From contig CBDCUW010000004.1 in NCBI GenBank assembly GCA_965222745.1, forward strand, positions 686,041 through 750,040: DNA of 64,000 nt, given 5' to 3'. The translations under genes and the position numbers were made by a program. This document shows, one piece after another, positions 9,537 through 25,057 of the stretch (the first letter of the stretch is position 1; the number at the start of each line of letters is the position of its first letter). The stretch is from Rubripirellula sp. GTDB lineage: Bacteria > Planctomycetota > Planctomycetia > Pirellulales > Pirellulaceae. The notes below the pieces were generated by a model. The model made no database searches, was not told where the DNA came from, and worked only from the letters and a program-made list of their open reading frames with translations.

Positions 9537-10835
9537 TTGTGGCATGGGGAGCGGTCGCAAGTGAAGCAGTTAGAACTAACCTTTCGTGTCGTGACACCTT
9601 CTTTCTTGGGTGGCGCCCAACACCGCGTGGAATTCCGTTTGGCCAGTTTCAAGGGTGCGTTGCGATTCTGGTGGCGCTCGTTGCACGGAAATCTCACTAC
9701 GGCGGAGCTACATCGAAGAGAATTTGCGATCTTTGGTTCCAGCAGCCAAGGCACGGGAAGGTCGCGGGTGAGGCTGCGTCTGGTCGATATCGATCCGGCC
9801 GAGCCCCAAGTGATGAAAGCCGGTGATATACTTTGGAAAGAAGGTGGCAGCAACAAGCGGTTCAAGTCCGCTTTCTATCTCGGTTACGGATGCCTCAAAG
9901 CGTTTGACAGTAACCCAGACAATGGTCCTGCTACTAAATCGGGCCAGCTGGAACGCGAGTGCACGATGCCTCATACATTTACGGTCCGTGTTTCGTTCGC
10001 CCCAACGCTTTCACGTTCTCAAGTCGAATCGGTCGAAAATGCTCTTCGGTTACTTGGAACCGTCGGCGGGCTGGGCGGCCGAGCACGTCGTGGCTGGGGC
10101 AGTCTAACCTTGATTGGCTGGAAACGACCGGGGGAATGTGATGGTGCGCAACCGCAACTTGTCTCGGATAACGACCCCCTGAGTTCATTGCGTCGTCTGA
10201 CCGGCAATGATCGATTGAGTTCGCAGCGTACCGAATCCACATCCGCCTGCGACTCACGTCTCCCTGCGTGGACTGCATTGACGAGCCTCTCGCGTGTCAT
10301 CGCGTTGAAGACGTCTATCAAAGATCCTCGTCTCGTGATGAAACACCTGGGCATGGAGTTCGTCCGCTTCCGTGGCTATGGGAAGAAAGGGATGGTAATG
10401 GACGGACCTCGCGAGCAAGTGTCTGGCAAGGCACGCTTCCAAGATGATCACGACTTGTTTCGTCGGACGCAGTCTGTCCCGATCGATCATCCCCGGCGTG
10501 TCGTTTTTGGATTGCCGCACAATTACGGACAAGTCCCCTCGCAGCATTGCGAGCCGATGGATTTTGAACGCCGTGGCAGCCCACTCTTCTTCCATCTTCA
10601 TCAGACGCAGGAGGACCAAGGTGTTACAGTGGTGCTACTGTTTTTGCCATCCCTCTACCTGCCAGCGGGAAAAGGTTCAAATCCTCAGTTGAAGGCCTTT
10701 GGACGAACAGTCGGCCTCGCCACTTCGATCAGTTTTTGGGACCCCGTTCACGACTTCCTGGACCGGATGTCTGGCAAAGGCGGTCAAGACAATCACGCCT
10801 GCACGGAGCTGAGAAATGCGGAGGTGGTGTCATGA
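9537..10835 (+). CDS. cmr1: Type III-B Cmr1 (RAMP)
   Basis: The N-terminus LELTFRVVTPSFLGGAQ...EFRLASFKGALRFWWRSL matches the Cmr1 RAMP signature (TPlfiGG...sSlKGalRfw). It is the first gene of the cmr operon and starts at a TTG/GTG. Confidence 0.7.
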   Translation: MWHGERSQVKQLELTFRVVTPSFLGGAQHRVEFRLASFKGALRFWWRSLHGNLTTAELHRREFAIFGSSSQGTGRSRVRLRLVDIDPAEPQVMKAGDILWKEGGSNKRFKSAFYLGYGCLKAFDSNPDNGPATKSGQLERECTMPHTFTVRVSFAPTLSRSQVESVENALRLLGTVGGLGGRARRGWGSLTLIGWKRPGECDGAQPQLVSDNDPLSSLRRLTGNDRLSSQRTESTSACDSRLPAWTALTSLSRVIALKTSIKDPRLVMKHLGMEFVRFRGYGKKGMVMDGPREQVSGKARFQDDHDLFRRTQSVPIDHPRRVVFGLPHNYGQVPSQHCEPMDFERRGSPLFFHLHQTQEDQGVTVVLLFLPSLYLPAGKGSNPQLKAFGRTVGLATSISFWDPVHDFLDRMSGKGGQDNHACTELRNAEVVS

Positions 10836-12877
10836 CGCAGAAGTTCGAAGACGTCTTTCGATTGTCGTTCGCAGTCGGTCCAGTTCAAACCTTTGTCTCC
10901 CAGTCGCGACGGACGCGAGATCTCTGGTCCGGCAGCTGGCTACTCTCCTTCCTGTCGGAAACCGCCTTGGCAAAAGCGGAACAGACCGGGGGACATGCGA
11001 TCATTCCGTACCGGCACGAACACGAACGGTGCAGGTTGACTTCCAGCCGTTCAGCGATTGGGGGAATCCCGAATCGTTTTGAAGTCTCGTTTGGGAATCA
11101 GCAGCTCGCCGAACGGACTGGTCACGAGTGTGTTGCTACGTTTAGGCACAGCTGGGAAACGATTGCAAACTGCATTTTCGAGAAGTACTTCCACAACGAT
11201 GTATTGGAAAAAGGGAGCCAAACCAAATCAATATGGGATCGTCAAATCTCTGATTTTTGGCAGCTATCGTGGATCGTCTCCAAAACACCGGGCCCACGCA
11301 AATTAGCGGGACTGCCACTCAGTGAACGAAAGCACTTTCGCAACGTGCCAGCATCAAACGAACCTGGCACAAAGTGTTCAATGGTCACGAGCCTGCAGGA
11401 ACTTTCTGGTTGGTACGGGCGAGGAAACTGGACAAAACAAAGCGAGTTTTGGAGACAGCTAGGCGGCAAGCTCAGCGGCCTGGATCTGGGGGATCGCGAA
11501 ATGTTGTCCGCGGTCGGATTCGTTAAACGCATGTTTCCCGAAGTCGTTGATCTTTGCCTTCGTCGTTTTTCAAATGCGTTGCCTGACGGAACTCGTTTCG
11601 AAACGATATCACCGGAAGGTGATCAGGACGCGCTTCGCCATCAGGCACGCTGGCCGTCGCTTGCATTTCTCGCCGCTCTGCCGTGGATGCAAGATGTCAA
11701 TGCAAATCCTGACACGGCTGGCGAAGCGAAGAGAATCACTGCGAAAGCGATTCGCAAATCGCACAGAGATGAGAATGGTTACTGGGAATCCGAAGAGATT
11801 CCCAAAAACGACTTCGGCTTGGGCGATTGGGCGCGCATTGATGCCCCCGTCTGGTTTACGAGCGGATTGAACGCCAACAGTCCCGGATTGCCTGAGAATC
11901 GACTTTCCGAGCTGAAGAATATTCAAATCCGTTTGCACAGTCTGGCTGGCTCGAAACCAGTGCCAAGCTATGCCTTGTTGCTGGCTGACGGTGACTCCAT
12001 GGGGAATTTGCTCGGCGTGATGGATGATCCCACACGACTCAGCGAATGCCTGGGCCGGTTTTCGACCGGGGTCAGCAAGATCATCTGCCCCGAGAACCGA
12101 AACGGACGAGTCGTCTACGCTGGCGGCGACGATGTCTTCGCACTACTCAGTGCGGAAACAGCGCTGGCGGCGGCCGATCAACTGCGCCACGCCTATGCGG
12201 ATGCCTTTGTGGACCAAGGCGTTGATCTTCAAGCGACCCTTTCGGTGGCTATTGTTTACGCTCATTGGCGATACCCGTTGAAGCAGGTCATCCGTTTTGC
12301 TCATCAATTGTTGGATGACGTCGCGAAAGATCAGACCGGCCGGGATTCACTTGCAGTAGCAGTTTTGCAGGGCGGTGGTCTTCGTTCGATTTGGTCAGCT
12401 CCCTGGAATGTGATTCGCGGCAAACGTGACGGCTGTGTTTCATTTGATAGCCTGATCAACCGATTTGCCACTGCTGACGATGAACTGTCGCAATCAGAGA
12501 GTGCTGCAATCAACAGCAGCTTTCTTTACAGCCTTCGAAAGCAGTACTCCGCGTTAATGCCTAACGCTTCGGATCTCCCTGGGAAATACCAATCCGTCGC
12601 GGAAGCAACCAAGGGGAGCGTAGATGCAATCAATCTGTTGCAGTCCATTGCCCATAGTGAATACCGACGACGACTGACACCCTCTGGGCGTTTGAGCAAT
12701 CACCGCGAGGCAACCGAAAAATATATCAACGAATTGATGACGCTTTGCCACCCCTGGCAAAGGGACAACGAAGGCGCCAGCCATTCCGACTCAAACAAGT
12801 TTAGTTTTGACGGTTGGAAGATTGCTCGTTACTTGAAACAGGTCAAGGAGAAACAGGTAGTGGATCATGAGTGCTGA
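10832..12877 (+). CDS. cas10: Cas10/Cmr2, HD-less form with intact GGDD cyclase motif
   Basis: The N-terminus begins directly with the conserved FAVGPVQTFVSQSRRTRDLWSGSWLLSFL block, with no preceding HD domain. VVYAGGDDVFAL (GGDD palm motif) is present. Start set at the internal MTQKF Met, which avoids overlap with cmr1. Confidence 0.85.
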   Translation: MTQKFEDVFRLSFAVGPVQTFVSQSRRTRDLWSGSWLLSFLSETALAKAEQTGGHAIIPYRHEHERCRLTSSRSAIGGIPNRFEVSFGNQQLAERTGHECVATFRHSWETIANCIFEKYFHNDVLEKGSQTKSIWDRQISDFWQLSWIVSKTPGPRKLAGLPLSERKHFRNVPASNEPGTKCSMVTSLQELSGWYGRGNWTKQSEFWRQLGGKLSGLDLGDREMLSAVGFVKRMFPEVVDLCLRRFSNALPDGTRFETISPEGDQDALRHQARWPSLAFLAALPWMQDVNANPDTAGEAKRITAKAIRKSHRDENGYWESEEIPKNDFGLGDWARIDAPVWFTSGLNANSPGLPENRLSELKNIQIRLHSLAGSKPVPSYALLLADGDSMGNLLGVMDDPTRLSECLGRFSTGVSKIICPENRNGRVVYAGGDDVFALLSAETALAAADQLRHAYADAFVDQGVDLQATLSVAIVYAHWRYPLKQVIRFAHQLLDDVAKDQTGRDSLAVAVLQGGGLRSIWSAPWNVIRGKRDGCVSFDSLINRFATADDELSQSESAAINSSFLYSLRKQYSALMPNASDLPGKYQSVAEATKGSVDAINLLQSIAHSEYRRRLTPSGRLSNHREATEKYINELMTLCHPWQRDNEGASHSDSNKFSFDGWKIARYLKQVKEKQVVDHEC

Positions 12878-14069
12878 GCAATGGTGCCAGATGCGTGCCG
12901 TTGATGCGTTGTTTTTTCGTGATGGCACGCCCTTCAATCGCGGTGAAGATCATGGTGACATCAGCAGTGTGTTTCCGCCCGTGCCGCATACACTTTCGGG
13001 AGCGATGCGTTTCGCGTTGGCCCGCGCCAACGGTTGGAGCGGAAAAGGATCATGGTGTGAACAACGTGACGATGCTGGACGCGATTTTGCCGAGACTTTA
13101 GGAGACGGGCCCGACGACCTTCGTCAGCTAAGATTCTTCGGCCCACTGTTGGCGCTTGATCGTGAATCCGATACCGGCACGTCACGACGGTCTCTCCGGC
13201 TGTTCTTTCCCATGCCTCGGCATGTGATTGGTTTCACCGAACGATACGCGGATGGATCTGCCCCCACCTTTCATCCAGATGATTGGTTGGTTCCTGGGGA
13301 GCCCCGATACAGCGATGCCTGCGACAAGCCCGTTGCATTTCCAACACCGGCGACCCGACGCGAAAAACCTCCTTTTGCAGAGCCCACCGATGAATTTTTT
13401 GTCGCGATGGAGGGCATGCAGCAAATCGCTTCAGGATGTTTGCCCGCATCCGACGAATGCCTCCACCGCGATCATCTCTTTCAGTCGGAACCGCGCGTGG
13501 GCATCGCTAGGGAACGTGGTCTGCGTACCGCCGAACATGGCGCGCTTTACAATCCGAGCTTCATTCGCACGACCGACGCTCTGTCTATTCTCTACTGTCT
13601 CCGCGGAACACCGGACGGATGGAGAGTTCCATCAACGATCGCGCTCGGGGGTGAGTCGAGAATGGCTTCACTTGAAAGATTACCCGAGAGTGATGATCCA
13701 CGTATTCCGTGCTACCAACCAGCCTCGTCGGATCGTGTCGCGTTGGTCTTGTTGACACCGGCTTTGTTCGAATCGGACGCCACGAACCAGCCAGACGATA
13801 AATCCACCCATTGGTTCGGTGCAGGCCCCGGCCAATCGGCCAGGCGGCTCGACCCCGCGTTTTCGGGAAACGTCGTCACAACGTCGATCAATCGCCCGCA
13901 ATTCATTGGCGGTTGGAATGCACTGACCGGTGGTCCTGAGCCGTTACGCCCCTATGCGCCGGCGGGAACCGTGTGGTGGCTGGACAACATACCTGCCAAG
14001 CCAGGACCATTCCAAATCGGACGTCGCACCGAACACGGCTACGGTTTGGCCATCTGTTGCAAGGTATGA
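12867..14069 (+). CDS. cmr3: Type III-B Cmr3
   Basis: The N-terminus AVDALFFRDGTPFNRGED...VFPPVPHTLSGAMRFA matches the Cmr3 signature (DpLFFRDGrPF...fPP.PsTl.GalR). Confidence 0.75.
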   Translation: MSAEQWCQMRAVDALFFRDGTPFNRGEDHGDISSVFPPVPHTLSGAMRFALARANGWSGKGSWCEQRDDAGRDFAETLGDGPDDLRQLRFFGPLLALDRESDTGTSRRSLRLFFPMPRHVIGFTERYADGSAPTFHPDDWLVPGEPRYSDACDKPVAFPTPATRREKPPFAEPTDEFFVAMEGMQQIASGCLPASDECLHRDHLFQSEPRVGIARERGLRTAEHGALYNPSFIRTTDALSILYCLRGTPDGWRVPSTIALGGESRMASLERLPESDDPRIPCYQPASSDRVALVLLTPALFESDATNQPDDKSTHWFGAGPGQSARRLDPAFSGNVVTTSINRPQFIGGWNALTGGPEPLRPYAPAGTVWWLDNIPAKPGPFQIGRRTEHGYGLAICCKV

Positions 14070-14114
14070 GAGCGTGGAAAATTGGACCTTATCGTTTGAC
14101 AATCACGATTAAAC

Positions 14115-15053
14115 ATGAAAACAAATCTGTACGGATTATTAGCCGAAACCGCAATACATCCCGGCGCCGGACAAGACGCCGGGTTGATCGATTTGCCCGT
14201 AGCCCGTGAACGTATTACCGATTTCCCGGTCGTCGTTGGGAGTTCGCTAAAGGGGGCGTTACGAGACCAATTGTTCTGGCAAGATTACAAGGACCCCACG
14301 TCGCAACCTGGGTTCAGTCAGTTGGACGAAGAACAACAGCACCATCAAAAAGCGGATTCCCGACGTCAAGTCGACCGGACGCTCGCACCAATATTTGGGG
14401 CCCAGGGGAACGAATCGGCTGGCGCCGGAGGTATCCTGGTCTCTGATGCACGGTTGCTTCTCTTGCCGATCCGAAGTCTGACGAGCCACTATTATTGGAT
14501 CACTTGCCCTTTGATCTTGGAAAGGTTCGTTCGAGATCACAAACGAGCAAATTTTGGTGATGTGGACATTCCAGCATTGACGCTTTCACCACAACAATTC
14601 GCGGGGCTGACTACCGACGACTCGCCTGCGATGATCTTTCTGGAAGAGCTTCAGTTTGCGAGGAACGCTGATCATGATCAGGAAAATACAACTTCTGTGA
14701 AAGCAGCGATCGAGCTGATTCGGCCATTGATTCGCCATGCAGCCACCGCCCAGCGTTTGGAAAGCCAATTGGTCATACTTTGTGACGAAGACTTTACGTG
14801 GTTCGCGCGATACGGTTTGACGGTCACGGCGCGGAACGTGCTAGATCGAGAGACGAAGGCGAGTAAAAACCTATGGTACGAAGAAACCTTGCCAAGTGAT
14901 TCCCTATTCTATTTCAGTGTCTCGGAGCGCAATTCTGGAACGTTGAGTGATTTCGACGATCGGTTTTGCCGGTCTCACTATCTTCAGGTTGGAGGAAATG
15001 AAACGGTTGGGCAAGGTTGGTTCGTCACTCAACGCGTTGACTTCAATCAATAG
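14115..15053 (+). CDS. cmr4: Type III-B Cmr4 (backbone RAMP, target-RNA cleaving subunit)
   Basis: LLAETAIHPGAGQDAGLIDLPVARERITDFPVVVGSSLKGALRDQ matches the Cmr4 consensus, including the catalytic Asp in IDLPV and the G-rich loop. Confidence 0.85.
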   Translation: MKTNLYGLLAETAIHPGAGQDAGLIDLPVARERITDFPVVVGSSLKGALRDQLFWQDYKDPTSQPGFSQLDEEQQHHQKADSRRQVDRTLAPIFGAQGNESAGAGGILVSDARLLLLPIRSLTSHYYWITCPLILERFVRDHKRANFGDVDIPALTLSPQQFAGLTTDDSPAMIFLEELQFARNADHDQENTTSVKAAIELIRPLIRHAATAQRLESQLVILCDEDFTWFARYGLTVTARNVLDRETKASKNLWYEETLPSDSLFYFSVSERNSGTLSDFDDRFCRSHYLQVGGNETVGQGWFVTQRVDFNQ

Positions 15054-15064
15054 GCAGGATTCCG

Positions 15065-15505
15065 ATGCAAACTGTTGAACAGAAACGTGCCGCCGACGCG
15101 GTGCGTAAGATCCAAGGAATGATCAATAGCAATCGCGACTATGGGCATTATGTTTCGTATGCATCCGCGCTTCCCGCGCAGATTGTCAACAATGGGCTTG
15201 GCCAAGCGATCACGATGCTGTGTGCCGCCGCGGGCCGAAAGACGATCCCCCACGAGGATCCACACTACTTTTTGGCCGACCACGTCGCCAGTTGGTTGGC
15301 CGAACAGATTCAAGAACTGAGACCAACTGATGGCGTGAACCATCCCGTCCAAGTCGTCCAGCGTCTGGCCGAAGGCAATCAGAAACAATATTCGCGCGCG
15401 ACGGCCGAGGCGGTTGCGTATCTGAATTGGCTCAAGAGGTTTGCACGCGCCATGCTCACTGAGCCAGGGGAAACCCCGGATGGATCGGAGAATACGAATG
15501 TCTAG
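15065..15505 (+). CDS. cmr5: Type III-B Cmr5 (small alpha-helical subunit)
   Basis: 146 aa, with the LPAQIVNNGLGQAITML motif typical of Cmr5 (LPamIrtnGL.qalaf). Confidence 0.7.
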   Translation: MQTVEQKRAADAVRKIQGMINSNRDYGHYVSYASALPAQIVNNGLGQAITMLCAAAGRKTIPHEDPHYFLADHVASWLAEQIQELRPTDGVNHPVQVVQRLAEGNQKQYSRATAEAVAYLNWLKRFARAMLTEPGETPDGSENTNV

Positions 15506-16841
15506 CGTTCCTTCACGCCCCATCTACCGTACCCGAGGCGAAATTCCCCAGTTGACCAAGATACGGCGAAACGGAAACTTCGGGTTGTTCTTCAACAAGT
15601 TTCCCGATCACTGGGGAATGAAAAAGGATAATCAAGTAGACAAAATCGCGTTCGATCCGGGAAAAACGGAAAGCAACAAAAAGAGTTGGTTGCGAAAAAT
15701 CGCGGGAAACCATCCGCGCGATCGCAAGGCGGACAGCCCATCACAGGCAGTTGGAAACTCGGACGCGATACAAGAGTCTGCGGAACGGCTTTATTGTTTG
15801 ATTGAAAGTCGGGGGGGCAAAGTCTTCGCCATCGAAAACCGGTCTCGATTCTTAACTGGTGCTGGGCTCGAACACCCAACGAGAAATGGGATGCTGTTGC
15901 ATCCGACGCTGGGTGTACCCTTCATCCCCGGCTCCACCGTAAAAGGAGTTCTCAGCGCATGGAATTGGCAGACACTGTGGGCAGACCACGTCGGAGAGGA
16001 CGGAGAATACGACGATGATCGACGCAGAACGCACGACGCGGCGTACATCAGTGAATTCGGCCGTTTATTGGGAACGACGGGGCAGGTCGGCGGAATCCAA
16101 TTCACCGACGTACTGCCAGTCCGAACGGTCGAATTAGATGTCGAGATTCTCACCCCGCACTACGGCAAATACTATGCATCTAACATTGAAGCAGCGGATG
16201 GAACCGGCCAGGAGGCGACCTCGAACAATCCAAACGCATCAACAATCCCCAGTCCCGGCGACTGGCATAGCCCCCTTCCGGTTGAATACCTGGTCGTCGC
16301 CGCCAAACAGGTTTGGGTTGGCGGAATCATTCCCTCCCCTCGCACAAATGCACCCTCCCTTAACGAAGTGCTGGATCTTCTCCGACAAGCGATCGAGGAA
16401 CTTGGCATTGGAGCAAAGACGGAAATCGGTCTTGGGGTTTTTGAATTCTTGGAAAATGCGACCGACCATCGTCCCGACTTCTTGAGCAAGGCGGCGAACA
16501 GTGCTAGCGCTAGGCCGATGGTGGAGAACCTTCAACAGCCTTACGACGATTCCGACCTACAGGTAAAAGCCATCATTGGGGATGGGGGCGATGACCCCAA
16601 CAGTCGGCCTCAGGCGATTCTGCGGTTTTACGATTTACTCTCGGAATCGGGCGACACGTTGTCGATCGACGCCGCACGTTGGATCTGTTCACAGTACCTT
16701 GGGGACGCAGTGATTAAGGCATTACCCCAAGGTGCCGAAACGGCAGCAAAGAAAAAGAAAAAGCTAAAGCAAAAGAAGGATTTGCTGGAAAAGTTTCTGC
16801 CCGTCATTGAGGCGATCATCGAGACGGCGTCACGGGAATAA
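15501..16841 (+). CDS. cmr6: Type III-B Cmr6 (RAMP)
   Basis: GLFFNKFPDHW and LHPTLGVPFIPGSTVKGVLSAW are RAMP motifs characteristic of Cmr6. Start set at the internal Met MSSVPS, which abuts the cmr5 stop. Confidence 0.75.
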   Translation, partial: SSVPSRPIYRTRGEIPQLTKIRRNGNFGLFFNKFPDHWGMKKDNQVDKIAFDPGKTESNKKSWLRKIAGNHPRDRKADSPSQAVGNSDAIQESAERLYCLIESRGGKVFAIENRSRFLTGAGLEHPTRNGMLLHPTLGVPFIPGSTVKGVLSAWNWQTLWADHVGEDGEYDDDRRRTHDAAYISEFGRLLGTTGQVGGIQFTDVLPVRTVELDVEILTPHYGKYYASNIEAADGTGQEATSNNPNASTIPSPGDWHSPLPVEYLVVAAKQVWVGGIIPSPRTNAPSLNEVLDLLRQAIEELGIGAKTEIGLGVFEFLENATDHRPDFLSKAANSASARPMVENLQQPYDDSDLQVKAIIGDGGDDPNSRPQAILRFYDLLSESGDTLSIDAARWICSQYLGDAVIKALPQGAETAAKKKKKLKQKKDLLEKFLPVIEAIIETASRE

Positions 16842-16844
16842 GAC

Positions 16845-17558: not shown

Positions 17559-17847
17559 AGTTGAGGTGCAAACAGATAAAGAAGTGTTGCTCAAGGTCAG
17601 TTTCAGCGAACAGGCTGACAACACGCAAATTGTCGTCGATGCAAAAGTGGCCATCGAAGCACTCGGGCTTCAAGGTGGCAGATTGGTAAAGTTCAACGGT
17701 GCGGCATCGTTGCCGGTGGCGATGGTGATGTGCCACGCGGTGGCGCATCTCTTTGGTGCCGTCGCGGTTTACGATCCCAAACTCGCAGGATACGTGGTGT
17801 GCGTATCGCATTCGCCCGAGCACAGAGTGGGTGAGTTGATTGATTGA
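17539..17847 (+). CDS. Csx3-like small protein (candidate cyclic-oligoadenylate ring nuclease Crn3)
   Basis: 102 aa. The C-terminal block GAASLPVAMVMCHAVAHLFGAVAVYDPKLAGYVVCVSHSPEHRVGEL resembles the Cas_csx3 family core (R-A-P-x-W-L...vAVyDPrl..yVVv.sH) as I recall it from memory. It is the last gene before the CRISPR leader. Confidence 0.45.
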   Translation: MSTYTIEVEVQTDKEVLLKVSFSEQADNTQIVVDAKVAIEALGLQGGRLVKFNGAASLPVAMVMCHAVAHLFGAVAVYDPKLAGYVVCVSHSPEHRVGELID

Positions 17848-18156
17848 CGGAAATCAGCGATTGGAGTTTGTTTTGCGCGCCCGGTTGGGTTTCGATTCGA
17901 GCCCACATCTATAAGTCGCGAGACAGCAGCCCGCCAAAGTGGGGCGCGTCGCGAACCGTCTGATGCTTCGAAGGGAACCACGACCGCAGTCAGAGTTTGA
18001 CGCGGTGAGAAATTCGAAGCCGTTTGCCACCGGCAGTGTCAGGCTGGAGTGGGGTCTAAACCAACTAACCAATTGCCTTCACCAAAGAAACAGCCATAAA
18101 TCCTTTTCCAATATCGACTTCCGCGATACACTACGCATGTGCCCCCTAAATAGGCG
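17848..18156 (+). promoter_or_regulatory. Putative CRISPR leader / array promoter region
   Basis: ~310-bp non-coding stretch immediately 5' of repeat 1. Repeat orientation (3' end ATTGAAAC gives the crRNA 5' tag AUUGAAAC) implies plus-strand transcription from this side. A degenerate repeat lies at the opposite end. Confidence 0.4.
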
Positions 18157-19960
18157 GTCACAGAATGAGGGTCAGCTGACTCGATTGAAACAAAAAAAGA
18201 ACAAAAAAAAAGAAAAAGTTCACTGGTTTTTGTCACAGAATGAGGGTCAGCTGACTCGATTGAAACAAGCATGTTGCAAGGGCGGAGATGGCCGAAGTCA
18301 CGTCACAGAATGAGGGTCAGCTGACTCGATTGAAACGCACAAACTGGCTCCATCAGAATCGACAAAAAGTCACAGAATGAGGGTCAGCTGACTCGATTGA
18401 AACCTCAAGAGCCAGGCTCAGAACACGGGCCATTTCGTCGTCACAGAATGAGGGTCAGCTGACTCGATTGAAACTATGGTCACCCAAATCTGATTCCATC
18501 AGCTCTCGGCGGGTGTGTCACAGAATGAGGGTCAGCTGACTCGATTGAAACTATTTATACTCTGTTGCCTCTTTCTCCTTGGTAAAAAGTTTCCGTCACA
18601 GAATGAGGGTCAGCTGACTCGATTGAAACAGCCGAAGCCAGAACGCCATTCCATCACTTGCCGAAAGAAGTCACAGAATGAGGGTCAGCTGACTCGATTG
18701 AAACCTTCCCCGAGACCATGGCTCCAGCACGTCCACTGCTGGATGTCACAGAATGAGGGTCAGCTGACTCGATTGAAACCTTCAGGCGTTGTGCCTTCAG
18801 ACTCGGTCAAAATCCCTCGTCACAGAATGAGGGTCAGCTGACTCGATTGAAACGTCAACCCGCTTGCGAGCATTGGCAAGCATGCTCTCAAAGGTCACAG
18901 AATGAGGGTCAGCTGACTCGATTGAAACAGCCCACTGGGCACCAGGATGACCGACATCGCCGTAAAGGCAGTCACAGAATGAGGGTCAGCTGACTCGATT
19001 GAAACTCCTCTTTTTCCCAGTGAAACCCTCTGGGGGAAATTGGTCACAGAATGAGGGTCAGCTGACTCGATTGAAACCTTGGATGACTCGCTTGCCATCC
19101 ATACTTTCTTTTTCTGTCACAGAATGAGGGTCAGCTGACTCGATTGAAACCATTGCGGTCAGACGGAGACTCCTCCGAGACACGCTTGTCGCCAGCGTCA
19201 CAGAATGAGGGTCAGCTGACTCGATTGAAACGTTTTTTCTTTCGCCTTTTATTTAGTTTTCTTCGTCACAGAATGAGGGTCAGCTGACTCGATTGAAACT
19301 TCTTGCCTTCGCCCCAAGTTGCTGGATCAATCTTGTCGAGTCACAGAATGAGGGTCAGCTGACTCGATTGAAACGCCTTCCTGCTTGTTTACGCATGTAA
19401 AGTCTATTCTGCCGTTGTCACAGAATGAGGGTCAGCTGACTCGATTGAAACCGACGGGTACGCAAGGGGATATGGTTCTCAATGAGAGACCAGTCACAGA
19501 ATGAGGGTCAGCTGACTCGATTGAAACGAGCAGAAGCAAAACCTGTCGGGCTTCCGCCAGCTGGAAGTCACAGAATGAGGGTCAGCTGACTCGATTGAAA
19601 CAAGATGTGCCTGACAATCATTCTCACCGTCTTGATGAGAGTCACAGAATGAGGGTCAGCTGACTCGATTGAAACGTAGTCTGATTGACCCTGGAATAGA
19701 TAAGCAGCAGGTCACAGAATGAGGGTCAGCTGACTCGATTGAAACTCGAACTGTGTGTTCCATTCATCAACTGTAGAGTAGGGGTCACAGAATGAGGGTC
19801 AGCTGACTCGATTGAAACGAAGGGTTGCCATCTTCTTCCTTTGGGGTGGAAGTCACAGAATGAGGGTCAGCTGACTCGATTGAAACCCAGGGGTTTTCGG
19901 TGGATGGCAGATCTCGTTTGCCGGGGTCACAGAATGAGGGTCAGCTGACTCGATTGAAAC
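18157..19960 (+). CRISPR. CRISPR array, 25 x 35-bp direct repeats GTCACAGAATGAGGGTCAGCTGACTCGATTGAAAC, 24 spacers (32-46 bp)
   Basis: All 25 repeats are perfect. Repeat starts are 18157, 18232, 18302, 18369, 18440, 18517, 18595, 18670, 18745, 18819, 18894, 18971, 19043, 19116, 19197, 19265, 19340, 19417, 19493, 19567, 19641, 19711, 19784, 19852 and 19926. A probable degenerate terminal repeat sits at ~20002-20040. ORFs called across the array (e.g. 18515-18841) are translation artefacts. Confidence 0.97.
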
Positions 19961-20293
19961 CAACGGAATGTTCATATTTTGCCAAGACATCTGCGATGAT
20001 TGTCACAGTAGTAGATCACAAGTTGCAGAATCTCGATAAGTTGGCTCCACTGTATGCTCCCACCGCCGGTTTTGCCGGGGAAGCCTGGCCCTACGTTGGT
20101 TGGACCGCTGATATTCCTATCAAACTTTAGCGAAGATCGTTGGTCGTGATTCGACGATTGCGAATCTGATTGTAGCTTTGGCGACAAGCAAACGCGCCAG
20201 GCTCCCGAATCTCGGCATGGTGCGGCTCGCTACGATCTGGTTTAAATTGGGTAGCGTACCAGTCAACACCCACCACCTGTAACGGAGGAGGAA

Positions 20294-20566
20294 ATGCCTG
20301 AATACGTGATCGCCTATGATGTGCACGATGACCGCCGAAGAGAACGGATCGCGCGAGTCTTATCGCGATATGGGGAGCGAATTCAGCGGTCGGTCTTTGT
20401 CGCTTTTTTGGACAGCGAAGAGCACCTGGAGCTTCGAATTGAATTGGGTGAACACCTGCGGGTTAACGATCAGCTAGAATTCTTTCCCGTTGACGCTCGT
20501 GCAAAGGCAAAGCACGTTTCTTGGCATGATGATCCTCACGTCGGACTTACCGTTCGAGTCGTCTAG
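20294..20566 (+). CDS. cas2: Cas2
   Basis: 90 aa. MPEYVIAYDVHDDRRRERIARVLSRYGERIQRSVFVAFL matches the Cas2 consensus (vlVtYDV..dkRR.kv.k.L..yG.RvQ.SVFec). Confidence 0.8.
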   Translation: MPEYVIAYDVHDDRRRERIARVLSRYGERIQRSVFVAFLDSEEHLELRIELGEHLRVNDQLEFFPVDARAKAKHVSWHDDPHVGLTVRVV

Positions 20567-20633
20567 CCTCGTTTCCGCGTTGCGCCATATTCTACTGCTC
20601 GAATCGATCTCGACGATTCCACATCCATTTGCC

Positions 20634-21998
20634 ATGCCTGACCAAGCAGATTCCGACACCCGCCAAGCAGACCCCCCAAAATCATCTGGCGATCAATCCC
20701 TGAACTCGGGATCGGAAACGCGTCACCCGGAGATCGTTCCATTTGAATTGAGTTCTGAAAATGCAAAATCAGGATTTCCTCGATGGTTCGCAGTGTATTT
20801 TTTGATCACGTTCACGGCCGTCCATATCGTTGCATTTGAAATCTGGCACCTCTTTATCCAGCCACATCCACTCATCGCGTTTGGGTGCTGGATCTGCGCT
20901 TTGGTCGTGTTTGCGTCGGTGGCATATCACATGTACGTCCACCGCTTTGGGCATCAAACAATAGCGAAAAGAATGTGTCTGAGCCTATCAATCGGCGTGG
21001 CGGGTTTGTTCATCGCTTTTGGTTCTCATGACGGCATGACGTTTTGTTCGAACGCGTTGTTTGCCAATCACTCTCAGCCAGAACACGAGGAAGTGGAGAG
21101 CAAAAACGACACCGAGATACTTCAAGAGCCTGGGGAGAATCATCAAGATTCATCTCACGAGACACACCATGCGCCGGGCTTGGCGGAATGGACGCGCCTT
21201 GTGGTTGCGATTTGTATTGCGGTGACCGGCTTGTGCTATCTTGAAAACGAGCACCATCACTTACCCGAAAAGCGTCTTGTGGAGCATCCGGCAATCGTCG
21301 ATGGCGTCCGGAAGCCGGGTAGCGGCGAACCAATCAAGCATTTGGTGATCCCACTGACAGCTCCGAATTGGGTGCCAGATTGTCGAGAGGGAAAAGCTGG
21401 TTTTCCAACCAAAGACAAGAACGACAAACCCCTCTATCTGGAGTGCAAAGATATTACAGCCGACATTGCGCTCCTCAACGAATTGCCGTTCAATTGCAAT
21501 TGGCAACAACTCTTGCGGGCGATCCAGCCTCACCTTGGGTCACTAGAAAGCATTTGGTTGTTTGGCTCCAACGGCGAGATGGATCAGCAGACCCGCGTGC
21601 CTGGCCCTGTGCCCTACCGAGAGTCTGTTGCAGGCGGCTCAGCTGGATACGTCCGGCTCGCCACATCATTCATTGCCCCCTATCTGCGCGACGAGACCCA
21701 AATTTTCGTCTTTGAGAACCAGGGGGCCGAGAAGTTGCGATTTCAGGATTACGCAAATGTGGATCAAACGATCCGACTTATCTTAAGGGAGATAAACTCA
21801 CGTTTTGCTGTTAGGGAGGCACAGATTGCCATTGATGCAACGGGCGGGCTGAAAACTGTTAGTATTGTGGGTGCCGCCGCGACGTTCAATCGAGAAGCTT
21901 GTTTTCAGTACGTTGATTCAACTGCTGGCCAGCAAAGCCGAGTCTTGATCTACTCCATTCGTAATGAGCATGACCCGAAGAGCGACTGGAGTGCATGA
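20634..21998 (+). CDS. Membrane-anchored CARF-domain protein (4 predicted TM helices + C-terminal CARF), candidate cOA-gated membrane effector
   Basis: Four TM helices are predicted. The soluble C-terminal domain has the CARF beta1 motif KHLVIPLTAPNW and the hallmark IAIDATGGLKTVSIVGAAAT (DxTGGxK) motif. The gene sits between cas2 and cas6-RT-cas1. Start moved to the internal Met (MPDQADS) to avoid overlap with cas2. Confidence 0.6.
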   Translation: MPDQADSDTRQADPPKSSGDQSLNSGSETRHPEIVPFELSSENAKSGFPRWFAVYFLITFTAVHIVAFEIWHLFIQPHPLIAFGCWICALVVFASVAYHMYVHRFGHQTIAKRMCLSLSIGVAGLFIAFGSHDGMTFCSNALFANHSQPEHEEVESKNDTEILQEPGENHQDSSHETHHAPGLAEWTRLVVAICIAVTGLCYLENEHHHLPEKRLVEHPAIVDGVRKPGSGEPIKHLVIPLTAPNWVPDCREGKAGFPTKDKNDKPLYLECKDITADIALLNELPFNCNWQQLLRAIQPHLGSLESIWLFGSNGEMDQQTRVPGPVPYRESVAGGSAGYVRLATSFIAPYLRDETQIFVFENQGAEKLRFQDYANVDQTIRLILREINSRFAVREAQIAIDATGGLKTVSIVGAAATFNREACFQYVDSTAGQQSRVLIYSIRNEHDPKSDWSA

Positions 21999-24870
21999 CC
22001 AGATGGGGCCTCTTTTGGACGGTGAATTATGCAGCTTTCCAACAGTTGTCATGCGGATTGGGCTGCAACTGCGATTAAAGGCACCGCGCCGCATCGCACC
22101 GCATCAGGCTGCGCTGGTGTACGCGCTGTTGTGTAACGCATACGGAACTCGCAACGATACCAAACCGGGCATGCCCGATGGAATCCTTCTAGATGCGCCG
22201 GACCAGGGATTGCGTCATCTAGGACCGGACAGCCCACTAACGATTGGTCTAACCACTGCATGTCCCTCCATCATTCACGCTCACCAAACACTAGAGCATC
22301 TAGTCGAAGGATTGCGGATGATCGGGCGACGGCCGACACCGGATCAGCGTTTGGGAAAGTATTCAATCGATTCGATCGAGGACTTGATCCAAAGAAAGGC
22401 CATTCAAACGGCACAGTTGGCGAGGGCGCTGAGCGACGATCACCTTCAGGAAGAATTTCGCACTTTGGGGAACGACTCCAGGTTAACGCTAAGATTTGTC
22501 ACTCCACTGCGCTGTTCACGACCAAAGACCAAGAAACGCGAAGGTCACGCCTTCTTTGACGAAACTTATTTCTCCGCGACTTCTTTCCTCAGTCGGACCA
22601 AGAGGCGGTTGTGCAATCTCGGTTGGCCGATCGAACAAAAAGAACTTCAAATGTCCAAACAAAGAAGTTCCGCCATCGTTGAAGAAAATCGTTTGGTCTG
22701 GCTTGATATCGGTTATGGGAAAAAGGGAGGCAAGAAGACACTTGGGGGTGCGGTTGGCGAGATCGTTCTGGGCCAGGTGAACGAGTTGGAAAAGCTTGCG
22801 CTCGTTTTGGGGCAATACTGCCGGGTTGGGGAAGGCACGAGGTTTGGTTTTGGCCACTACCGAATTACTGAATTGGGGCCGGACCGATACCGCGTTCAAA
22901 GGAGCCAATCGCTCGTCGAACGCGCCATTGGTGAATTGACCGCAGCACAGTCTGAGAAAATCGCAACCAAATTAAATCTTGGTTCCGGAATTTTGACCGC
23001 AGCACTCCAACAAGTTCGCTGTGGTCAATACGACTGCCAACCGCATTACCGCGTTCGAATCCCCAAGCACGACGACGGGTTTCGCGTCCTGTCCATCCCA
23101 ACAGCAAGAGACCGTGCCACACAGCAAGCCGTGTTGCCCGTGCTCGCAGACGGGATCGATGGATTTTTGGAATCGTCCGCCATGGCGTACCGCAAGGGTT
23201 TTGGACGTCAACAAGTAACCAAACGCATCAAGTGGGCGACGCGAAACGGGTTTCTTTGGGGAGTAAGAGCGGACTTTCTGGGGTTCTTTGATCACGTCGA
23301 CCATGCTTTGTTGCGTCGTCGGTTGGAGGCCTACCTTGCCGATCCGGTAACGGTTGACTGGATCATGGACTGTGTTTCGGCGGGCGCGCCGACCAAGGAC
23401 TGTGGATTGCCCACCGGATCACCACTGTCCCCGGCGCTAGCCAACTTATTCCTGGATCAATTTGACGAACAGCTTTGTCCGAACGGTTCGATACTGATGC
23501 GCTACGCCGACGACTTGTTAGTCCTTTGCAAGTCAAAAGAGCAAGCGGCGTCCATCATGCGACGTGCAAAGGAAGAGGCCAGTCACCTCTTGCTGGAGCT
23601 GAATCATGACAAGTCTCAGACGTTTGGCGCCGAAGATGACTTCCAGTTCCTCGGGTTTCAGTTTTTCCGTAGTGCTAGGGCTGATTCAAACGAGGCTTCT
23701 TGGGAAAACAGGTGTCAGCATGACGAACCCGCACTGGTTCACGACATCATGTGGACGACGGCAAAAACGGAAGTCAAGAAATCGAATTCACGTTACGCAC
23801 TGCCGGGCGAAAGTGAACTTGATACAGCATCGCGGCAGGCGCACCTGATCGCGGGTCCGGATGTTTCGGAGGTCGCACGTGACGGAAACTCGATTATCTT
23901 CCACAAGCGTGTCGGCCCTTCCGATCGAATCAAAGTTGCTGGTATTCGCGATATGACGATTATCGGAAAACCAAAGATCCATTTTCCCGGATTGGACCCA
24001 ATCGTGAACGCAGGAGGGACTGTCTGGTTTCTTGAAGACACCGGACGAGTTCACGCTCAATTGGCGCCGAAACCGTCCTCTGCGGATGCTGCGGGATTGC
24101 AGGCTCAAGTTGGACTATCTGACGACATAAGTCGCAAGCTGCGAATTTGTCAAACTCTCATTGCCAGCAAGATTTGCAACTACGCCGCGTTGTGGCGCAT
24201 CCTTTGGACGCACCAGCATGCTTCCGAACGCAAGCTTCAACAGTTGGCAACAAAGGTGCTGGAGGCAGATTCCGATCAGGAACTGTTGGGTTATGAGGGT
24301 GCTGCAGCAGCAATCTGGTATGGACAATTTTCATCCTGTTTGGGCCGCGGATTCGAATTTAAACGGCGGGTTGCGCCCGATGCGTGTGACCCGGTCAATG
24401 TGCTGCTCAATTTCGGCCAAACGATTCTGCACAGGATGTTGATTCACTGGATCGAACACGCGCGGTTGTCACCGATGCTGGGGATCTTTCACCACAATCG
24501 TTCAGGACATGCAACGCTCGCCTCGGATTTACAGGAGCCATTTCGCCACTTGGTCGATTTGGTTGTGATTGAAACCACCCATGAGCTACGCCAGTCGGAC
24601 TTTTTGCATGATTCCGACGGGCCCTATCCGCTTCGAATAAGGCCTCGGGCACGAACCACTTTTCTCACCAAATTACACCGGCGACTGATGCAATCCGTGG
24701 CAGGACAGGATCAACATTACCCGGCAAATTACCATCATCAGATGAGATCACTCGCTCGTCAGCTAAGACGCTATCTGATGTGTACGAGCGAAGAGTTGAT
24801 TGGATTTTGGCACCCTGGGAGTCTTGCCCAATTGTGCTTGGAGAAGATTCGCAAACGCGCACCCAAATAG
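21964..24870 (+). CDS. cas1: Cas6-reverse transcriptase-Cas1 triple fusion (RT-Cas1 adaptation protein)
   Basis: The N-terminal domain ends with a G-rich loop (GYGKKGGKKTLGGAVGEIVLG...GEGTRFGFGHYRI), consistent with Cas6. The middle domain has group-II-intron-like RT motifs, including RYADDLLVLC (YADD). The C-terminus NVLLNFGQTILHRMLIHWIEHARLSPMLGIFHHNRSGHATLASDLQEPFRHLVD matches the Cas1 core (NalLnygY...G..p..G.lH...al.lDlmEpfRp.vD). Confidence 0.85.
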   Translation: MSMTRRATGVHDQMGPLLDGELCSFPTVVMRIGLQLRLKAPRRIAPHQAALVYALLCNAYGTRNDTKPGMPDGILLDAPDQGLRHLGPDSPLTIGLTTACPSIIHAHQTLEHLVEGLRMIGRRPTPDQRLGKYSIDSIEDLIQRKAIQTAQLARALSDDHLQEEFRTLGNDSRLTLRFVTPLRCSRPKTKKREGHAFFDETYFSATSFLSRTKRRLCNLGWPIEQKELQMSKQRSSAIVEENRLVWLDIGYGKKGGKKTLGGAVGEIVLGQVNELEKLALVLGQYCRVGEGTRFGFGHYRITELGPDRYRVQRSQSLVERAIGELTAAQSEKIATKLNLGSGILTAALQQVRCGQYDCQPHYRVRIPKHDDGFRVLSIPTARDRATQQAVLPVLADGIDGFLESSAMAYRKGFGRQQVTKRIKWATRNGFLWGVRADFLGFFDHVDHALLRRRLEAYLADPVTVDWIMDCVSAGAPTKDCGLPTGSPLSPALANLFLDQFDEQLCPNGSILMRYADDLLVLCKSKEQAASIMRRAKEEASHLLLELNHDKSQTFGAEDDFQFLGFQFFRSARADSNEASWENRCQHDEPALVHDIMWTTAKTEVKKSNSRYALPGESELDTASRQAHLIAGPDVSEVARDGNSIIFHKRVGPSDRIKVAGIRDMTIIGKPKIHFPGLDPIVNAGGTVWFLEDTGRVHAQLAPKPSSADAAGLQAQVGLSDDISRKLRICQTLIASKICNYAALWRILWTHQHASERKLQQLATKVLEADSDQELLGYEGAAAAIWYGQFSSCLGRGFEFKRRVAPDACDPVNVLLNFGQTILHRMLIHWIEHARLSPMLGIFHHNRSGHATLASDLQEPFRHLVDLVVIETTHELRQSDFLHDSDGPYPLRIRPRARTTFLTKLHRRLMQSVAGQDQHYPANYHHQMRSLARQLRRYLMCTSEELIGFWHPGSLAQLCLEKIRKRAPK

Positions 24871-25057
24871 GTATCTCTTTGTCCTTAAAGGAATGATTCG
24901 CAGCCGGACACAAGTGTGCATTATTTCTCAAGGTCCGGTGAAGTGCGCCGCCCCGTGACCAGGATCGACGTTCGAGATAGACTCGGACGCAATCTGGTAG
25001 GATTACCAAGGGTTCTCCAGAGGTACGTACGCCGCCATTTTTGACGAGGTTTGGAAG

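Follow-up and report, generated by a model that had tools for sequence, protein, structure and literature searches.

A planctomycete type III-B (Cmr) CRISPR-Cas locus with a Cas6-RT-Cas1 fusion and predicted cA4 signaling to the membrane

Introduction

Catalogues of Cas6-RT-Cas1 fusions have included planctomycete examples since 2017, among them that of Pirellula staleyi in Toro clade 8 (PMC5541045, PMC5513706). Uptake of spacers from RNA was demonstrated in M. mediterranea (Silas 2016, as cited in PMC5513706), and the same paper gives a lack of spacer matches as the rule for RT-associated arrays. On the signaling side, Cap1 of Parafilimonas terrae is a tetrameric membrane pore gated by cyclic tetra-adenylate (cA4), with the cA4-binding motif R(X3)QQ(X10)L; the DUF4579 domain is rare among its homologues, most of which consist of TM and CARFL parts only (bioRxiv 10.1101/2025.11.13.688252). 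Csx3/Crn3 is a cA4-specific ring nuclease (PMC12409355).

Here, a locus related to these systems was analyzed in a 64,000-nucleotide stretch of DNA from Rubripirellula sp. (the window). With a probability of roughly 0.85, its sequence is read as that of a type III-B (Cmr) system that belongs to the RT-using lineage, is self-contained and signals to the membrane by way of cA4. The locus is well preserved, and the kind of system is already known.

Organization of the locus

The type III-B locus occupies window positions 9537-24870, with every gene on the + strand, in the order cmr1-cas10-cmr3-cmr4-cmr5-cmr6-cap1-like-csx3, leader, 25-repeat array, cas2, TM-CARF gene and cas6-RT-cas1 (Table 1). 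From cmr1 to csx3 the genes form a tightly packed operon in which neighbors overlap or stand 4-12 nt apart. Curated HMMs recovered all six Cmr genes as well as cas2 and csx3, and identified Cas6, RT and Cas1 within the fusion, in most cases with scores above the family cutoffs; none of the thirteen elements was interrupted, and all catalytic motifs checked were intact. The GC content of the locus was 0.49-0.55, compared with 0.57-0.60 in the flanks. Two proteins of the DUF1559 + N-methyl type and an ECF sigma factor (PF07638) are typical of a planctomycete host, as is the presence of best homologues in Planctomycetota.

The original prediction, that a planctomycete-like genome here carries a complete type III-B locus including a Cas6-RT-Cas1 fusion, agrees with the HMMs, the alignment to structure 7KFT, the catalytic residues and the host signals, and the features it named all lay where it had placed them, far beyond chance. 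The profile-HMM check that it proposed recovered all of Cmr1-6, Cas10, Cas1 and Cas2. Its gene list was right for the genes named, but passed over the cap1-like gene and csx3, which lie between cmr6 and the array.

Table 1. Elements of the locus, with positions in the window and the evidence for each assignment
Feature	Position	Strand	Evidence
cmr1, two-RAMP subunit of Cmr complex	9537-10835	+	TIGR01894 33.8 bits (cutoff 28.65), 3.4e-8; Pfam RAMPs 1e-17; PADLOC Cmr1 5e-18
cas10/cmr2, cyclase-type large subunit, 681 aa	10832-12877 (ORF opens 10736)	+	TIGR02577 110.9 vs cutoff 79.4, 7e-32; palm2 2e-30
cmr3	12867-14069	+	Pfam Cas_Cmr3 3e-51; TIGR01888 2e-23, below its equivalog cutoff
cmr4, Cas7 backbone RNase	14115-15053	+	TIGR02580 1.9e-51, above cutoff
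cmr5, small subunit, Cas11	15065-15505	+	Pfam Cas_Cmr5 4e-28; TIGR01881 4e-15, above cutoff
cmr6, 447 aa from probable ATG	15498-16841 (ORF opens 15441)	+	TIGR01898 7.7e-29, above cutoff
cap1-like gene, 237-aa protein	16845-17558	+	Motif, predicted topology, architecture, locus context
csx3/crn3, cA4 ring nuclease, 102 aa	17539-17847	+	PADLOC Csx3 5.7e-17; Pfam Cas_csx3 5.9e-8, above cutoff
CRISPR leader	17848-18156	+	Conserved AGGCTGG box 18041-18047, 110 nt before first repeat
CRISPR array	18157-19960	+	25 identical 35-nt repeats GTCACAGAATGAGGGTCAGCTGACTCGATTGAAAC, 24 spacers
cas2	20294-20566	+	Pfam CRISPR_Cas2 2.5e-15; TIGR01573 1.3e-10, above cutoff
TM+CARF ancillary effector, 490 aa	ATG 20526-21998 (ORF opens 20490)	+	PADLOC Csx1 'TM+CARF' 2.2e-16, 'CARF, 2 TMs' 4e-15, CARF8-CARF_TM profiles
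cas6-RT-cas1 fusion, 955 aa	22003-24870 (968-aa ORF opens 21964)	+	Pfam Cas6, RVT_1, Cas1 in order

Cmr effector genes

All six assignments made earlier from motifs (cmr1, cas10, cmr3, cmr4, cmr5 and cmr6) were borne out by profile HMMs, and the GGDD cyclase motif of cas10 was present, at 12122-12133. The TTG start of cmr1 at 9537 is a mechanical ORF start. The probable ATG of cas10 (10832) and the stop codon of cmr1 overlap in the sequence ATGA. In Cas10, a Cmr2_N match (3e-18) began at about residue 11 of the protein; a domain-profile search gave no HD family match, and because the HD nuclease domain is absent, Cas10 is taken to contribute the GGDD cyclase only. The conserved Asp of Cmr4 is D26 in GLIDLPVARE (nt 14190-14192). 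The TIGR01898 match of Cmr6 stopped at residue 335 of the 466-residue ORF, leaving a C-terminal extension of ~130 aa that ends in a Lys-rich tract.

Array, leader and spacers

The count of exactly 25 identical repeats matched that given earlier. Spacers were all different, 32-46 nt long, with a mean GC of 0.50. The repeat contains a 5-bp stem that ends 1 nt 5′ of the 8-nt ATTGAAAC tag, and in L083, the nearest relative with sufficient sequence (45% identity), one stem pair reads A-T instead of G-C, a compensatory change. Orientation was assigned from the ATTGAAAC 3′ end of the repeat and from the 3′ degeneracy of the last repeat in four arrays belonging to relatives, and by these sequence features the array is transcribed on the + strand. 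In four related loci, the regions preceding a total of six arrays all contain the AGGCTGG box of the leader without variation.

The leader is on the csx3 side, and the adaptation genes therefore lie beyond the trailer. The earlier description of the adaptation module as 'trailer-distal' holds if it means the far, trailer end; the genes are at that end and not beside the leader. No spacer had a match in 50,697 phage genomes, in 152 related loci, elsewhere in the window or, for the three spacers tried, in IMG/VR contigs.

Adaptation genes

The cas2 prediction was upheld by its Pfam match, and the ATG of cas2 is preceded by a GGAGGAGG ribosome-binding site. The 968-aa ORF described as fusing Cas6 (G-rich loop), RT (YADD) and Cas1 contained these domains in that order: Cas6 (PF10040, 30.4 bits vs cutoff 25, 6.7e-7) at about 22489-22860, with the G-rich loop GFGHY in the fusion; a group-II-type RT (RVT_1, 8.9e-31) at about 23059-23664, with an intact YADD at 23503-23514; and Cas1 (Pfam, 2.7e-45) at about 23869-24675. 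PADLOC Cas1_IIIb matched residues 203-912 (6e-72). A 100% identical database protein of 955 aa begins at M14 of the ORF (nt 22003), and 65 homologues share the architecture. The fusion aligned with the Thiomicrospira Cas6-RT-Cas1 cryo-EM structure 7KFT over residues 231-915 (E 3.2e-66), while its N-terminal Cas6 region, residues 1-230, was too divergent for this alignment. Residues D503/D504, K537, E765, H830, D842 and E845 were invariant among 19 diverged homologues, and two invariant residues map onto residues mutated in the 7KFT protein.

In a neighbor-joining tree, as had been proposed as a check, the RT domain fell among known Cas6-RT-Cas1 clades: it grouped with planctomycete Cas6-RT-Cas1 proteins including that of Pirellula staleyi, beside the gammaproteobacterial clade, which includes a Marinomonas sp. 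protein (L013). Because the order cmr genes, cap1-like gene, csx3, array, cas2, Cas6-RT-Cas1 recurs in L083, the arrangement is a trait of the lineage and not an oddity, and calling it unusual overstated the case; two other relatives have the array between cas1 and cas2. Among the loci compared, what sets this window apart is only the insertion of the TM-CARF gene, which separates cas2 from cas1.

Membrane proteins and ring nuclease

An effector gene does separate cas2 from cas1, as predicted, but it encodes an ancillary TM+CARF protein and not a Cmr subunit. This protein has four hydrophobic helices (hydropathy peaks at residues 88-134, 146-168 and 219-237) and a C-terminal CARF domain, with DATGG at 21834-21848. 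A 490-aa database protein was 100% identical, homologues were present in five related loci (L084, L046, L002, L090 and L102), and comparison with solved CARF structures gave zero sequence matches.

The 237-aa protein had zero sequence matches in Pfam, PADLOC, NCBIfam and PDB and about 197 representative homologues. Its N-terminal segment is followed by a pair of TM helices and then by a CARF-like (CARFL) domain, which carries R126-x3-Q130-Q131 (nt 17220-17237). An AF2 model (pLDDT 82.9) gave two long helices followed by b-b-a-b-b-b-b-a. In the family consensus, DIRAxxQQIGxQMxxxxxL, the R(X3)QQ(X10)L motif of Cap1 is reproduced; this motif was complete in 70 of 150 family representatives, with Rx3QQ in 125, and the capping loop of the window's protein is ~13 residues longer than in the R(X3)QQ(X10)L consensus. 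Homologues are located in type III loci, often directly 3′ of cmr6. L130, a Cmr locus with GGDD but no HD domain, has no accessory gene other than the cap1-like one, and in two other loci (L101, L111) the cap1-like gene is accompanied by csx3 only. The protein is predicted, from sequence and model, to be a Cap1-family cA4-gated membrane pore.

The last 20 nt of the cap1-like gene are shared with the start of csx3, whose product matched the A. fulgidus Csx3 structures 6YUD/3WZI weakly, with the H-x3-H stretch aligned. In a related metagenome locus (L131), cap1-like and csx3 are apparently one ORF.

Proposed mechanism

The locus is predicted to target RNA and to encode two membrane alarm proteins and an off-switch. 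The Cas6 domain would cut pre-crRNA 8 nt before each repeat end, leaving a 5′ AUUGAAAC tag. The Cmr complex would bind complementary transcripts, Cmr4 would cleave them through its conserved Asp, and the GGDD cyclase of Cas10 would make cA4, the signal proposed because Csx3/Crn3, a CARF protein and a Cap1-family protein occur together. cA4 would open the 237-aa protein as a Cap1-type tetrameric pore and, as the assumed ligand, activate the four-TM CARF protein; both would depolarize the membrane and arrest the infected cell, until Csx3/Crn3 broke down cA4 and reset the system. Cas6-RT-Cas1 with Cas2 would integrate new spacers at the leader-proximal repeat from DNA, or from RNA after reverse transcription, and new memories can probably be copied from RNA by the reverse transcriptase fused to the integrase.

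Alternative readings

That the RT domain has a structural or other role and spacers come from DNA only would fit the missing protospacers, the finding that the RT palm in 7KFT adopts a conformation incompetent for reverse transcription (PMC8102632) and the uptake of spacers from both RNA and DNA by the M. mediterranea system (PMC5576922). However, the invariance of the motif-3 Asp, the RT-helix Lys and YADD across the 19 diverged homologues points to selection for catalysis, and RT-dependent RNA spacer uptake is described for related RT-Cas1 proteins in PMC5541045, PMC6821258 and PMC5513706, making a DNA-only system improbable. Loss of both adaptation and interference from genes that merely look intact, leaving an inactive relic, is less plausible still: no spacer has a detectable target in the searched sets and the GC content is below that of the flanks, as expected of horizontally acquired, possibly silenced DNA, but missing matches are the rule for RT-associated arrays (PMC5513706), the thirteen elements are uninterrupted with checked catalytic motifs intact, 25/25 repeats are identical with 24/24 spacers different, and gene junctions retain translational-coupling overlaps.

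The 237-aa protein could instead anchor the Cmr or adaptation machinery to the membrane, or be a non-catalytic Nudix-like sensor of another ligand. Both roles are unlikely for a family whose consensus exactly reproduces the published cA4-binding motif, whose predicted strand and helix order is the published CARFL topology, and whose repeated association with Csx3, a ring nuclease for cA4, as in the native Cap1 locus, fits an effector that needs switching off; Pfam NUDIX matched 0/40 family members.

Comparison with known systems

The effector module resembles type III-B complexes with HD-less Cas10 in its complete cmr1-6 set in canonical order, its GGDD and the context of the Cmr4 catalytic Asp; it differs in the extension of Cmr6, and its Cmr3, below the TIGR01888 equivalog cutoff, is well over that of Pfam. 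With Cap1 as published, the 237-aa protein shares the N-terminal segment, TM1/TM2 hairpin and CARF-like domain, the placement of Rx3QQ in the first CARF-like helix, and the presence of a Csx3-like ring nuclease in a type III locus, whereas it lacks DUF4579, has the longer capping loop and belongs to a III-B locus, the Cap1 locus studied being III-A. Like AF1864 of A. fulgidus, Csx3 is a single domain of ~100 aa whose conserved C-terminal half aligns, but it is very divergent (E 0.04) and its gene overlaps another. The TM+CARF protein shares with Cam1 and with the TM1-4 + CARF part of Chp1 the N-terminal TM helices followed by a cytosolic CARF domain, and with Cam1 a ring nuclease in the same locus (81% of Cam1 loci); it differs in its 490-aa length, four predicted TM helices and His/Glu-rich loop, and in having no HAD domain.

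The fusion is closest to the proteins of Toro 'RT-CRISPR clade 8' or Silas 'branch 1' (M. mediterranea MMB-1; Thiomicrospira 7KFT/7KFU; P. staleyi WP_012910084), sharing the three-domain order in one polypeptide with Cas2 alongside, the RT Asp-Asp, the RT-helix Lys and the Cas1 His. WP_012910084 is 38% identical over 95% of its length and works with another type III effector module, one that is not Cmr, whereas gammaproteobacterial members are only 25-28% identical; Thiomicrospira has FADD where the window has YADD, and in the window cas2 is split from the fusion gene by the TM-CARF gene.

Composition of the type III-B locus

Curated profile HMMs recovered all six Cmr genes between positions 9537 and 24870 of the window, in agreement with the original prediction of a complete cmr1-6 set. 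Cas10/Cmr2 matched TIGR02577 with 110.9 bits (cutoff 79.4) and contains Cmr2_N and second palm (palm2) domains, with the cyclase motif GGDD kept. Cmr1 (TIGR01894), Cmr4 (TIGR02580, 2e-51), Cmr5 (TIGR01881) and Cmr6 (TIGR01898) scored above their family cutoffs, while Cmr3 scored above the Pfam cutoff (3e-51) and below the TIGR01888 cutoff. Cas10 opens directly with Cmr2_N and matched no HD family; in the related loci L082-L084, L111 and L130, it is likewise short and GGDD-positive. An HD nuclease domain is present on Cas10 in many, not all, III-B systems and is not strictly defining. Cmr4 retains an Asp in the context GLIDLPVARE, which we take to be the counterpart of D26, the RNA-cleaving residue of P. 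furiosus Cmr4. From family membership, the Cmr complex is expected to carry out transcription-dependent RNA targeting and cOA synthesis. Probable true starts of cas10, cmr6 and the gene after cas2 were set from overlaps with upstream stops (see table). Cmr6 extends approximately 130 aa beyond the TIGR01898 match and ends in KKKKKLKQKK; its counterpart in L083 is longer still (748 aa).

Positions of features in the window
Feature	Position (nt)	Remarks
ECF sigma factor gene and two overlapping ORFs	7205-9518	directly upstream of cmr1
cas10, probable start	10832	
Cas10 GGDD motif	12122-12133	
cmr6, probable start	15498	
Cmr6 C-terminal extension	16450-16841	
cap1-like gene	16845-17558	237-aa membrane protein
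csx3/crn3	17539-17847	102 aa; 20-nt overlap with cap1-like gene
Leader	17848-18156	csx3 side of array
AGGCTGG box	18041-18047	110 nt before repeat 1
CRISPR array	18157-19960	
Spacer 1	18192-18231	leader-proximal
Spacer 15	19232-19264	
cas2	20294-20566	precedes TM-CARF gene
TM-CARF gene, probable start	20526	
cas6-RT-cas1 ORF	21964-24870	968 aa; second Met at 22003
SPFH/Band-7 gene and 1806-aa gene	30935-38414	+ strand, 6 kb from CRISPR locus

The host had been described as Planctomycete-like, which fits the presence of two DUF1559/N-methyl proteins and a PF07638 ECF sigma factor; the best homologues are from Pirellula, Stieleria, Gemmataceae and Phycisphaerales. GC content is 0.49-0.56 over positions 10001-26000, against 0.57-0.60 in 2-kb segments to either side, and the lower GC of the CRISPR locus is consistent with horizontal acquisition. 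The ECF sigma factor (PF07638/Sigma70_r2) is encoded next to two overlapping ORFs (453 and 408 aa), which matched no family and nothing in PADLOC, and no protease partner is present. A CalpS/CalpT-like pair formed by the sigma factor and its neighbour was considered and rejected because neither ORF had a PADLOC match and the gene tables of the close relatives L082-L084 list no sigma-factor gene; adjacency to cmr1 is treated as coincidental. On the other side of the locus, a gene for a 710-aa SPFH/Band-7 protein adjoins one whose 1806-aa product matched DUF3686 (2e-196; 'ATPase involved in DNA repair') and also has DUF7902 and AAA domains.

Predicted ancillary effectors and ring nuclease

The gene list of the original prediction was incomplete, as two genes between cmr6 and the array, the cap1-like gene and csx3, had been overlooked. 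The 237-aa product of the cap1-like gene matched nothing in Pfam, NCBIfam, PADLOC or the PDB sequence set, and a word-index protein search returned only the protein itself. An exhaustive HMMER search yielded approximately 197 representative homologues, with lengths of around 200 aa; in their alignment, a pair of hydrophobic helices is accompanied by a soluble domain that is conserved (consensus SLPKRLTV...C..A.L..E.DIRA..QQIG.QM.....L.F.P). An AF2 model calculated from a 40-sequence alignment (pLDDT 82.9; single-sequence AlphaFold, only pLDDT 50) has helices at residues 3-42 and 51-84, followed by a mixed α/β domain at 87-226. Basic residues flank the helical hairpin on its N- and C-terminal sides. 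DSSP assigned strands 87-95 and 109-119, helix 122-136, strands 156-169, 174-185, 199-202 and 211-214, and helix 219-226.

The modeled order of strands and helices corresponds to the published topology of the Cap1 CARFL domain, β1-β2-α3-β4-β5-β6-β7-α8, and the predicted architecture to that of Cap1, which has an N-terminal segment, two TM helices and a cytosolic CARF-like domain. Cap1 tetramers bind one cA4, upon which the pore opens and the membrane is depolarised; the conserved cA4-binding motif R(X3)QQ(X10)L lies on helix αH1 and the capping loop, most homologues consist of TM and CARFL only and reside in type III loci, and the native locus includes a Csx3-like ring nuclease (10.1101/2025.11.13.688252). 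Rx3QQ occurs in 125 of 150 representatives of the 237-aa family, and the exact R(X3)QQ(X10)L in 70. In the window protein, the motif is R126-x3-Q130-Q131 on predicted helix 122-136, and the loop to the conserved Leu (the capping loop) is approximately 13 residues longer than in the Cap1 consensus.

Gene context is consistent with these likenesses. Among the 68 metagenome loci that hold a cap1-like homologue, 35 are at least 6 kb long; simple phmmer queries found Cmr, Cas10, RT-Cas1 or Cas2 genes in 22 of the 35, and PADLOC found Csm, III-D, III-A or CARF-effector genes in at least 6 more. The cap1-like gene typically lies directly after cmr6, and in L130, a cas6-cmr1-6-RT-Cas1-cas2 locus with a GGDD-positive Cas10 lacking HD, no other accessory gene is present. 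This occurrence in type III loci was decisive for the function proposed, and by motif, topology, architecture and context together the 237-aa protein was assigned to the Cap1 family, as a predicted member. A Nudix hydrolase was considered instead, but the Nudix box GX5EX7REUXEEXGU is not matched. Csx23, with two TM helices and a PB1/beta-grasp-like cA4-binding domain, was another candidate, and the comparison yielded no support for homology. Foldseek of the model against the PDB returned nothing significant. Two metagenome loci place the cap1-like gene next to defence-type genes unrelated to CRISPR, one for a TIR-like protein (L099:3679-4407) and one for an AAA/TRIP13-like 'PDC-M37B/DolB' protein (L095:5197-7812). 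From these neighbours, some family members may work outside type III systems.

Csx3 was identified by Pfam PF09620 (32.9 bits, cutoff 21) and PADLOC (5.7e-17), and its gene immediately follows the cap1-like gene in the window, L082, L083, L101 and L111. Ring nucleases of the Csx3/Crn3 family act specifically on cA4, the messenger that predominates in type III systems (PMC11229360, PMC12409355). Membrane effectors without intrinsic ring-nuclease activity usually have a ring nuclease alongside, as in 81% of Cam1 loci (PMC12409355). Locus L131 contains a stop-free 348-aa frame (7469-8512) with a cap1-like match at residues 55-139 and a Csx3 match at residues 302-337, possibly an effector/ring-nuclease fusion that echoes the overlapping gene pair of the window.

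The gene said to separate cas2 from cas1 is indeed a separate gene, but the "effector" it encodes is an ancillary TM-CARF protein and not a Cmr subunit. [quoted passage not shown] The predicted layout, a transmembrane N-terminal part and a C-terminal CARF domain, appears to be shared with Cam1-like effectors.

CRISPR array and leader

The predicted 25-repeat array was confirmed by count: exactly 25 identical 35-nt repeats (GTCACAGAATGAGGGTCAGCTGACTCGATTGAAAC) are separated by 24 different spacers of 32-46 nt, with a mean spacer GC of 0.50. On the + strand, the repeat ends 3' in ATTGAAAC, and its 5-bp stem closes 1 nt before the 8-nt tag; in the L083 repeat, one stem pair is changed on both sides from G-C to A-T. 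The arrays of L082, L083 and L084 have closely related repeats and, read in the same orientation, a last repeat that decays at its 3' end. In six arrays of four loci (the window, L082, L083 and L084), an AGGCTGG box is invariant within the 120-150 nt that precede repeat 1, at approximately 110-120 nt, and may serve integration or transcription as part of the leader. The leader was placed on the csx3 side because of the ATTGAAAC end, the 3'-decaying last repeats of the relatives and the shared box. The cas2, TM-CARF and cas6-RT-cas1 genes therefore all lie beyond the array trailer. A candidate degenerate 26th repeat at 20002 (a GTCACAG heptamer in the right register) was rejected, as 179 of 500 shuffles were equally good in a local-alignment shuffle test. 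An Rfam scan of the window detected no CRISPR-DR family and no group II intron RNA.

Spacer targets were sought in the masked window and 84 loci (no significant match), in 50,697 phage genomes using 23 concatenated spacers (blastn, E up to 1; none) and in IMG/VR using three 23-mers (none). Spacer 1 (AAAAAAAGAACAAAAAAAAAGAAAAAGTTCACTGGTTTTT) is extremely A-rich (GC 0.20) and spacer 15 is T-rich (GC 0.27); no comparably skewed spacers occur among 34 spacers of three related loci. The best self-match of spacer 1 (16/17) lies where cmr6 encodes its Lys-rich end (16747-16763) and is probably low-complexity chance.

Cas6-RT-Cas1 fusion

The single ORF reported to join Cas6, RT and Cas1 matched PF10040, PF00078 (RVT_1) and PF01867 in that order. 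A 100% identical database protein (955 aa) begins at the second Met, 4 nt past the stop of the preceding gene, and residues are numbered here from this Met. Approximately 60 homologues combine these three Pfam domains. The catalytic residues of the RT, whose loss would have counted against the original prediction, are present: YADD at 501-504 is invariant across 19 homologues (25%-47% identical), as are the RT-helix Lys K537 and E765, H830, D842 and E845 of Cas1. The fusion aligned by phmmer with the Thiomicrospira homologue of known structure, 7KFT, at E 3e-66, and in this alignment D503, K537 and H830 are the counterparts of D540, K574 and H873, the residues mutated in the study of that protein (PMC8102632). 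The Cas6 part has a G-rich loop, GFGHY; across residues 1-230, divergence was too great for alignment with 7KFT.

An RT phylogeny, the check proposed originally, was calculated by neighbor joining from 80 RT domains, with no bootstrap. The window RT joined P. staleyi and further fusions from Planctomycetota in a group that was sister to the gammaproteobacterial fusions; group II intron RTs and cyanobacterial RT-Cas1 lay elsewhere in the tree. Descriptions of Cas6-RT-Cas1 fusions date from 2016-2017. The P. staleyi protein is listed in clade 8, of which subclade 8B includes Planctomycetia (Toro et al., PMC5541045), and the fusion group corresponds to branch 1 of Silas et al. (PMC5513706). For the relatives from M. 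mediterranea and V. vulnificus, spacer insertion from DNA or reverse-transcribed RNA has been demonstrated.

Gene order in related loci

The arrangement had been called unusual, a view not borne out within the lineage. Outside the source genome, the closest homologues of the fusion are encoded in L082 (47% identity) and L083 (45%). L083 has the same order as the window minus the TM-CARF gene: cas10, cmr3-6, cap1-like, csx3, one small gene, the array with its degenerate end facing cas2, cas2 and Cas6-RT-Cas1. In L082 and L084, a short array lies between Cas6-RT-Cas1 and cas2, and L084 encodes a TM-CARF homologue on the opposite strand. In P. staleyi, cas2 directly follows the fusion gene, then come the array and a type III effector module unlike that of the window. 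With these layouts, cas1 and cas2 are often apart in the clade, and among the relatives compared only the insertion of a TM-CARF gene between them is particular to the window. The P. staleyi locus (L001; CP001848, 1395107-1417935) encodes in its effector module a 570-aa protein of unknown family, a 499-aa protein that faintly matched the Cas10 palm and RAMP fusions of 661 aa and >1272 aa; a type I restriction-modification system precedes its Cas6-RT-Cas1/cas2/array. As these effectors are atypical, closely related adaptation modules serve different type III effectors.

The cap1-like gene lies directly upstream of (Cas6-)RT-Cas1, usually after cmr6, in L085, L086, L101, L111, L117, L130 and L132, and the order cmr6, cap1-like, (csx3), (Cas6-)RT-Cas1, cas2 is found in the window and again in seven or more independent metagenome loci. 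Among the cap1-like loci 6 kb or longer, 9 of 35 contain an RT, which seems high given that most type III systems lack one. That the recurrent order reflects functional coupling and not shared ancestry, with depolarisation by cA4 arresting the cell while the RT-integrase captures spacers from invader transcripts, is in our estimate very improbable. Were coupling true, the A-rich spacer 1 could have been acquired from A-tailed RNA. The adjacency of cap1-like and RT-Cas1 genes is recorded as a speculative lead.

Proposed mechanism and comparison with known systems

Gene content, motifs, operon structure, array orientation and conservation were read from the sequence, and from the protein families we infer the following steps. 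Cas6-RT-Cas1 and Cas2 would insert leader-adjacent spacers from DNA or reverse-transcribed RNA, and the Cas6 domain would yield crRNAs with a 5' AUUGAAAC tag. Cmr would bind complementary transcripts, to be cleaved by Cmr4, and the HD-less Cas10 would contribute cOA synthesis only. The signal is most likely cA4, because Csx3/Crn3 is specific for cA4, Cap1 binds cA4 and cA4 predominates in type III systems. It would open the Cap1-like pore and activate the TM-CARF protein, and Crn3 would clear it. With no HD nuclease domain on Cas10 in this lineage, the collateral arm would rest on the two membrane effectors and the ring nuclease.

To our knowledge, few CRISPR systems of Planctomycetota have been studied, and the locus contributes to this phylum a complete, clean case of a type III-B system that uses an RT. 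It offers a compact natural test bed for the division of labour between a Cap1-type pore and a TM-CARF protein under one cA4 signal, and for RNA-derived adaptation with a trailer-side adaptation module. Judged by their sequences, all components belong to described families, of which Cap1 is the latest, described only in 2025-2026. The locus does not overturn current understanding; mildly notable are the frequent adjacency of cap1-like genes to RT-Cas1 and the combination of an HD-less Cmr complex, two predicted membrane effectors, Crn3 and an RT-integrase.
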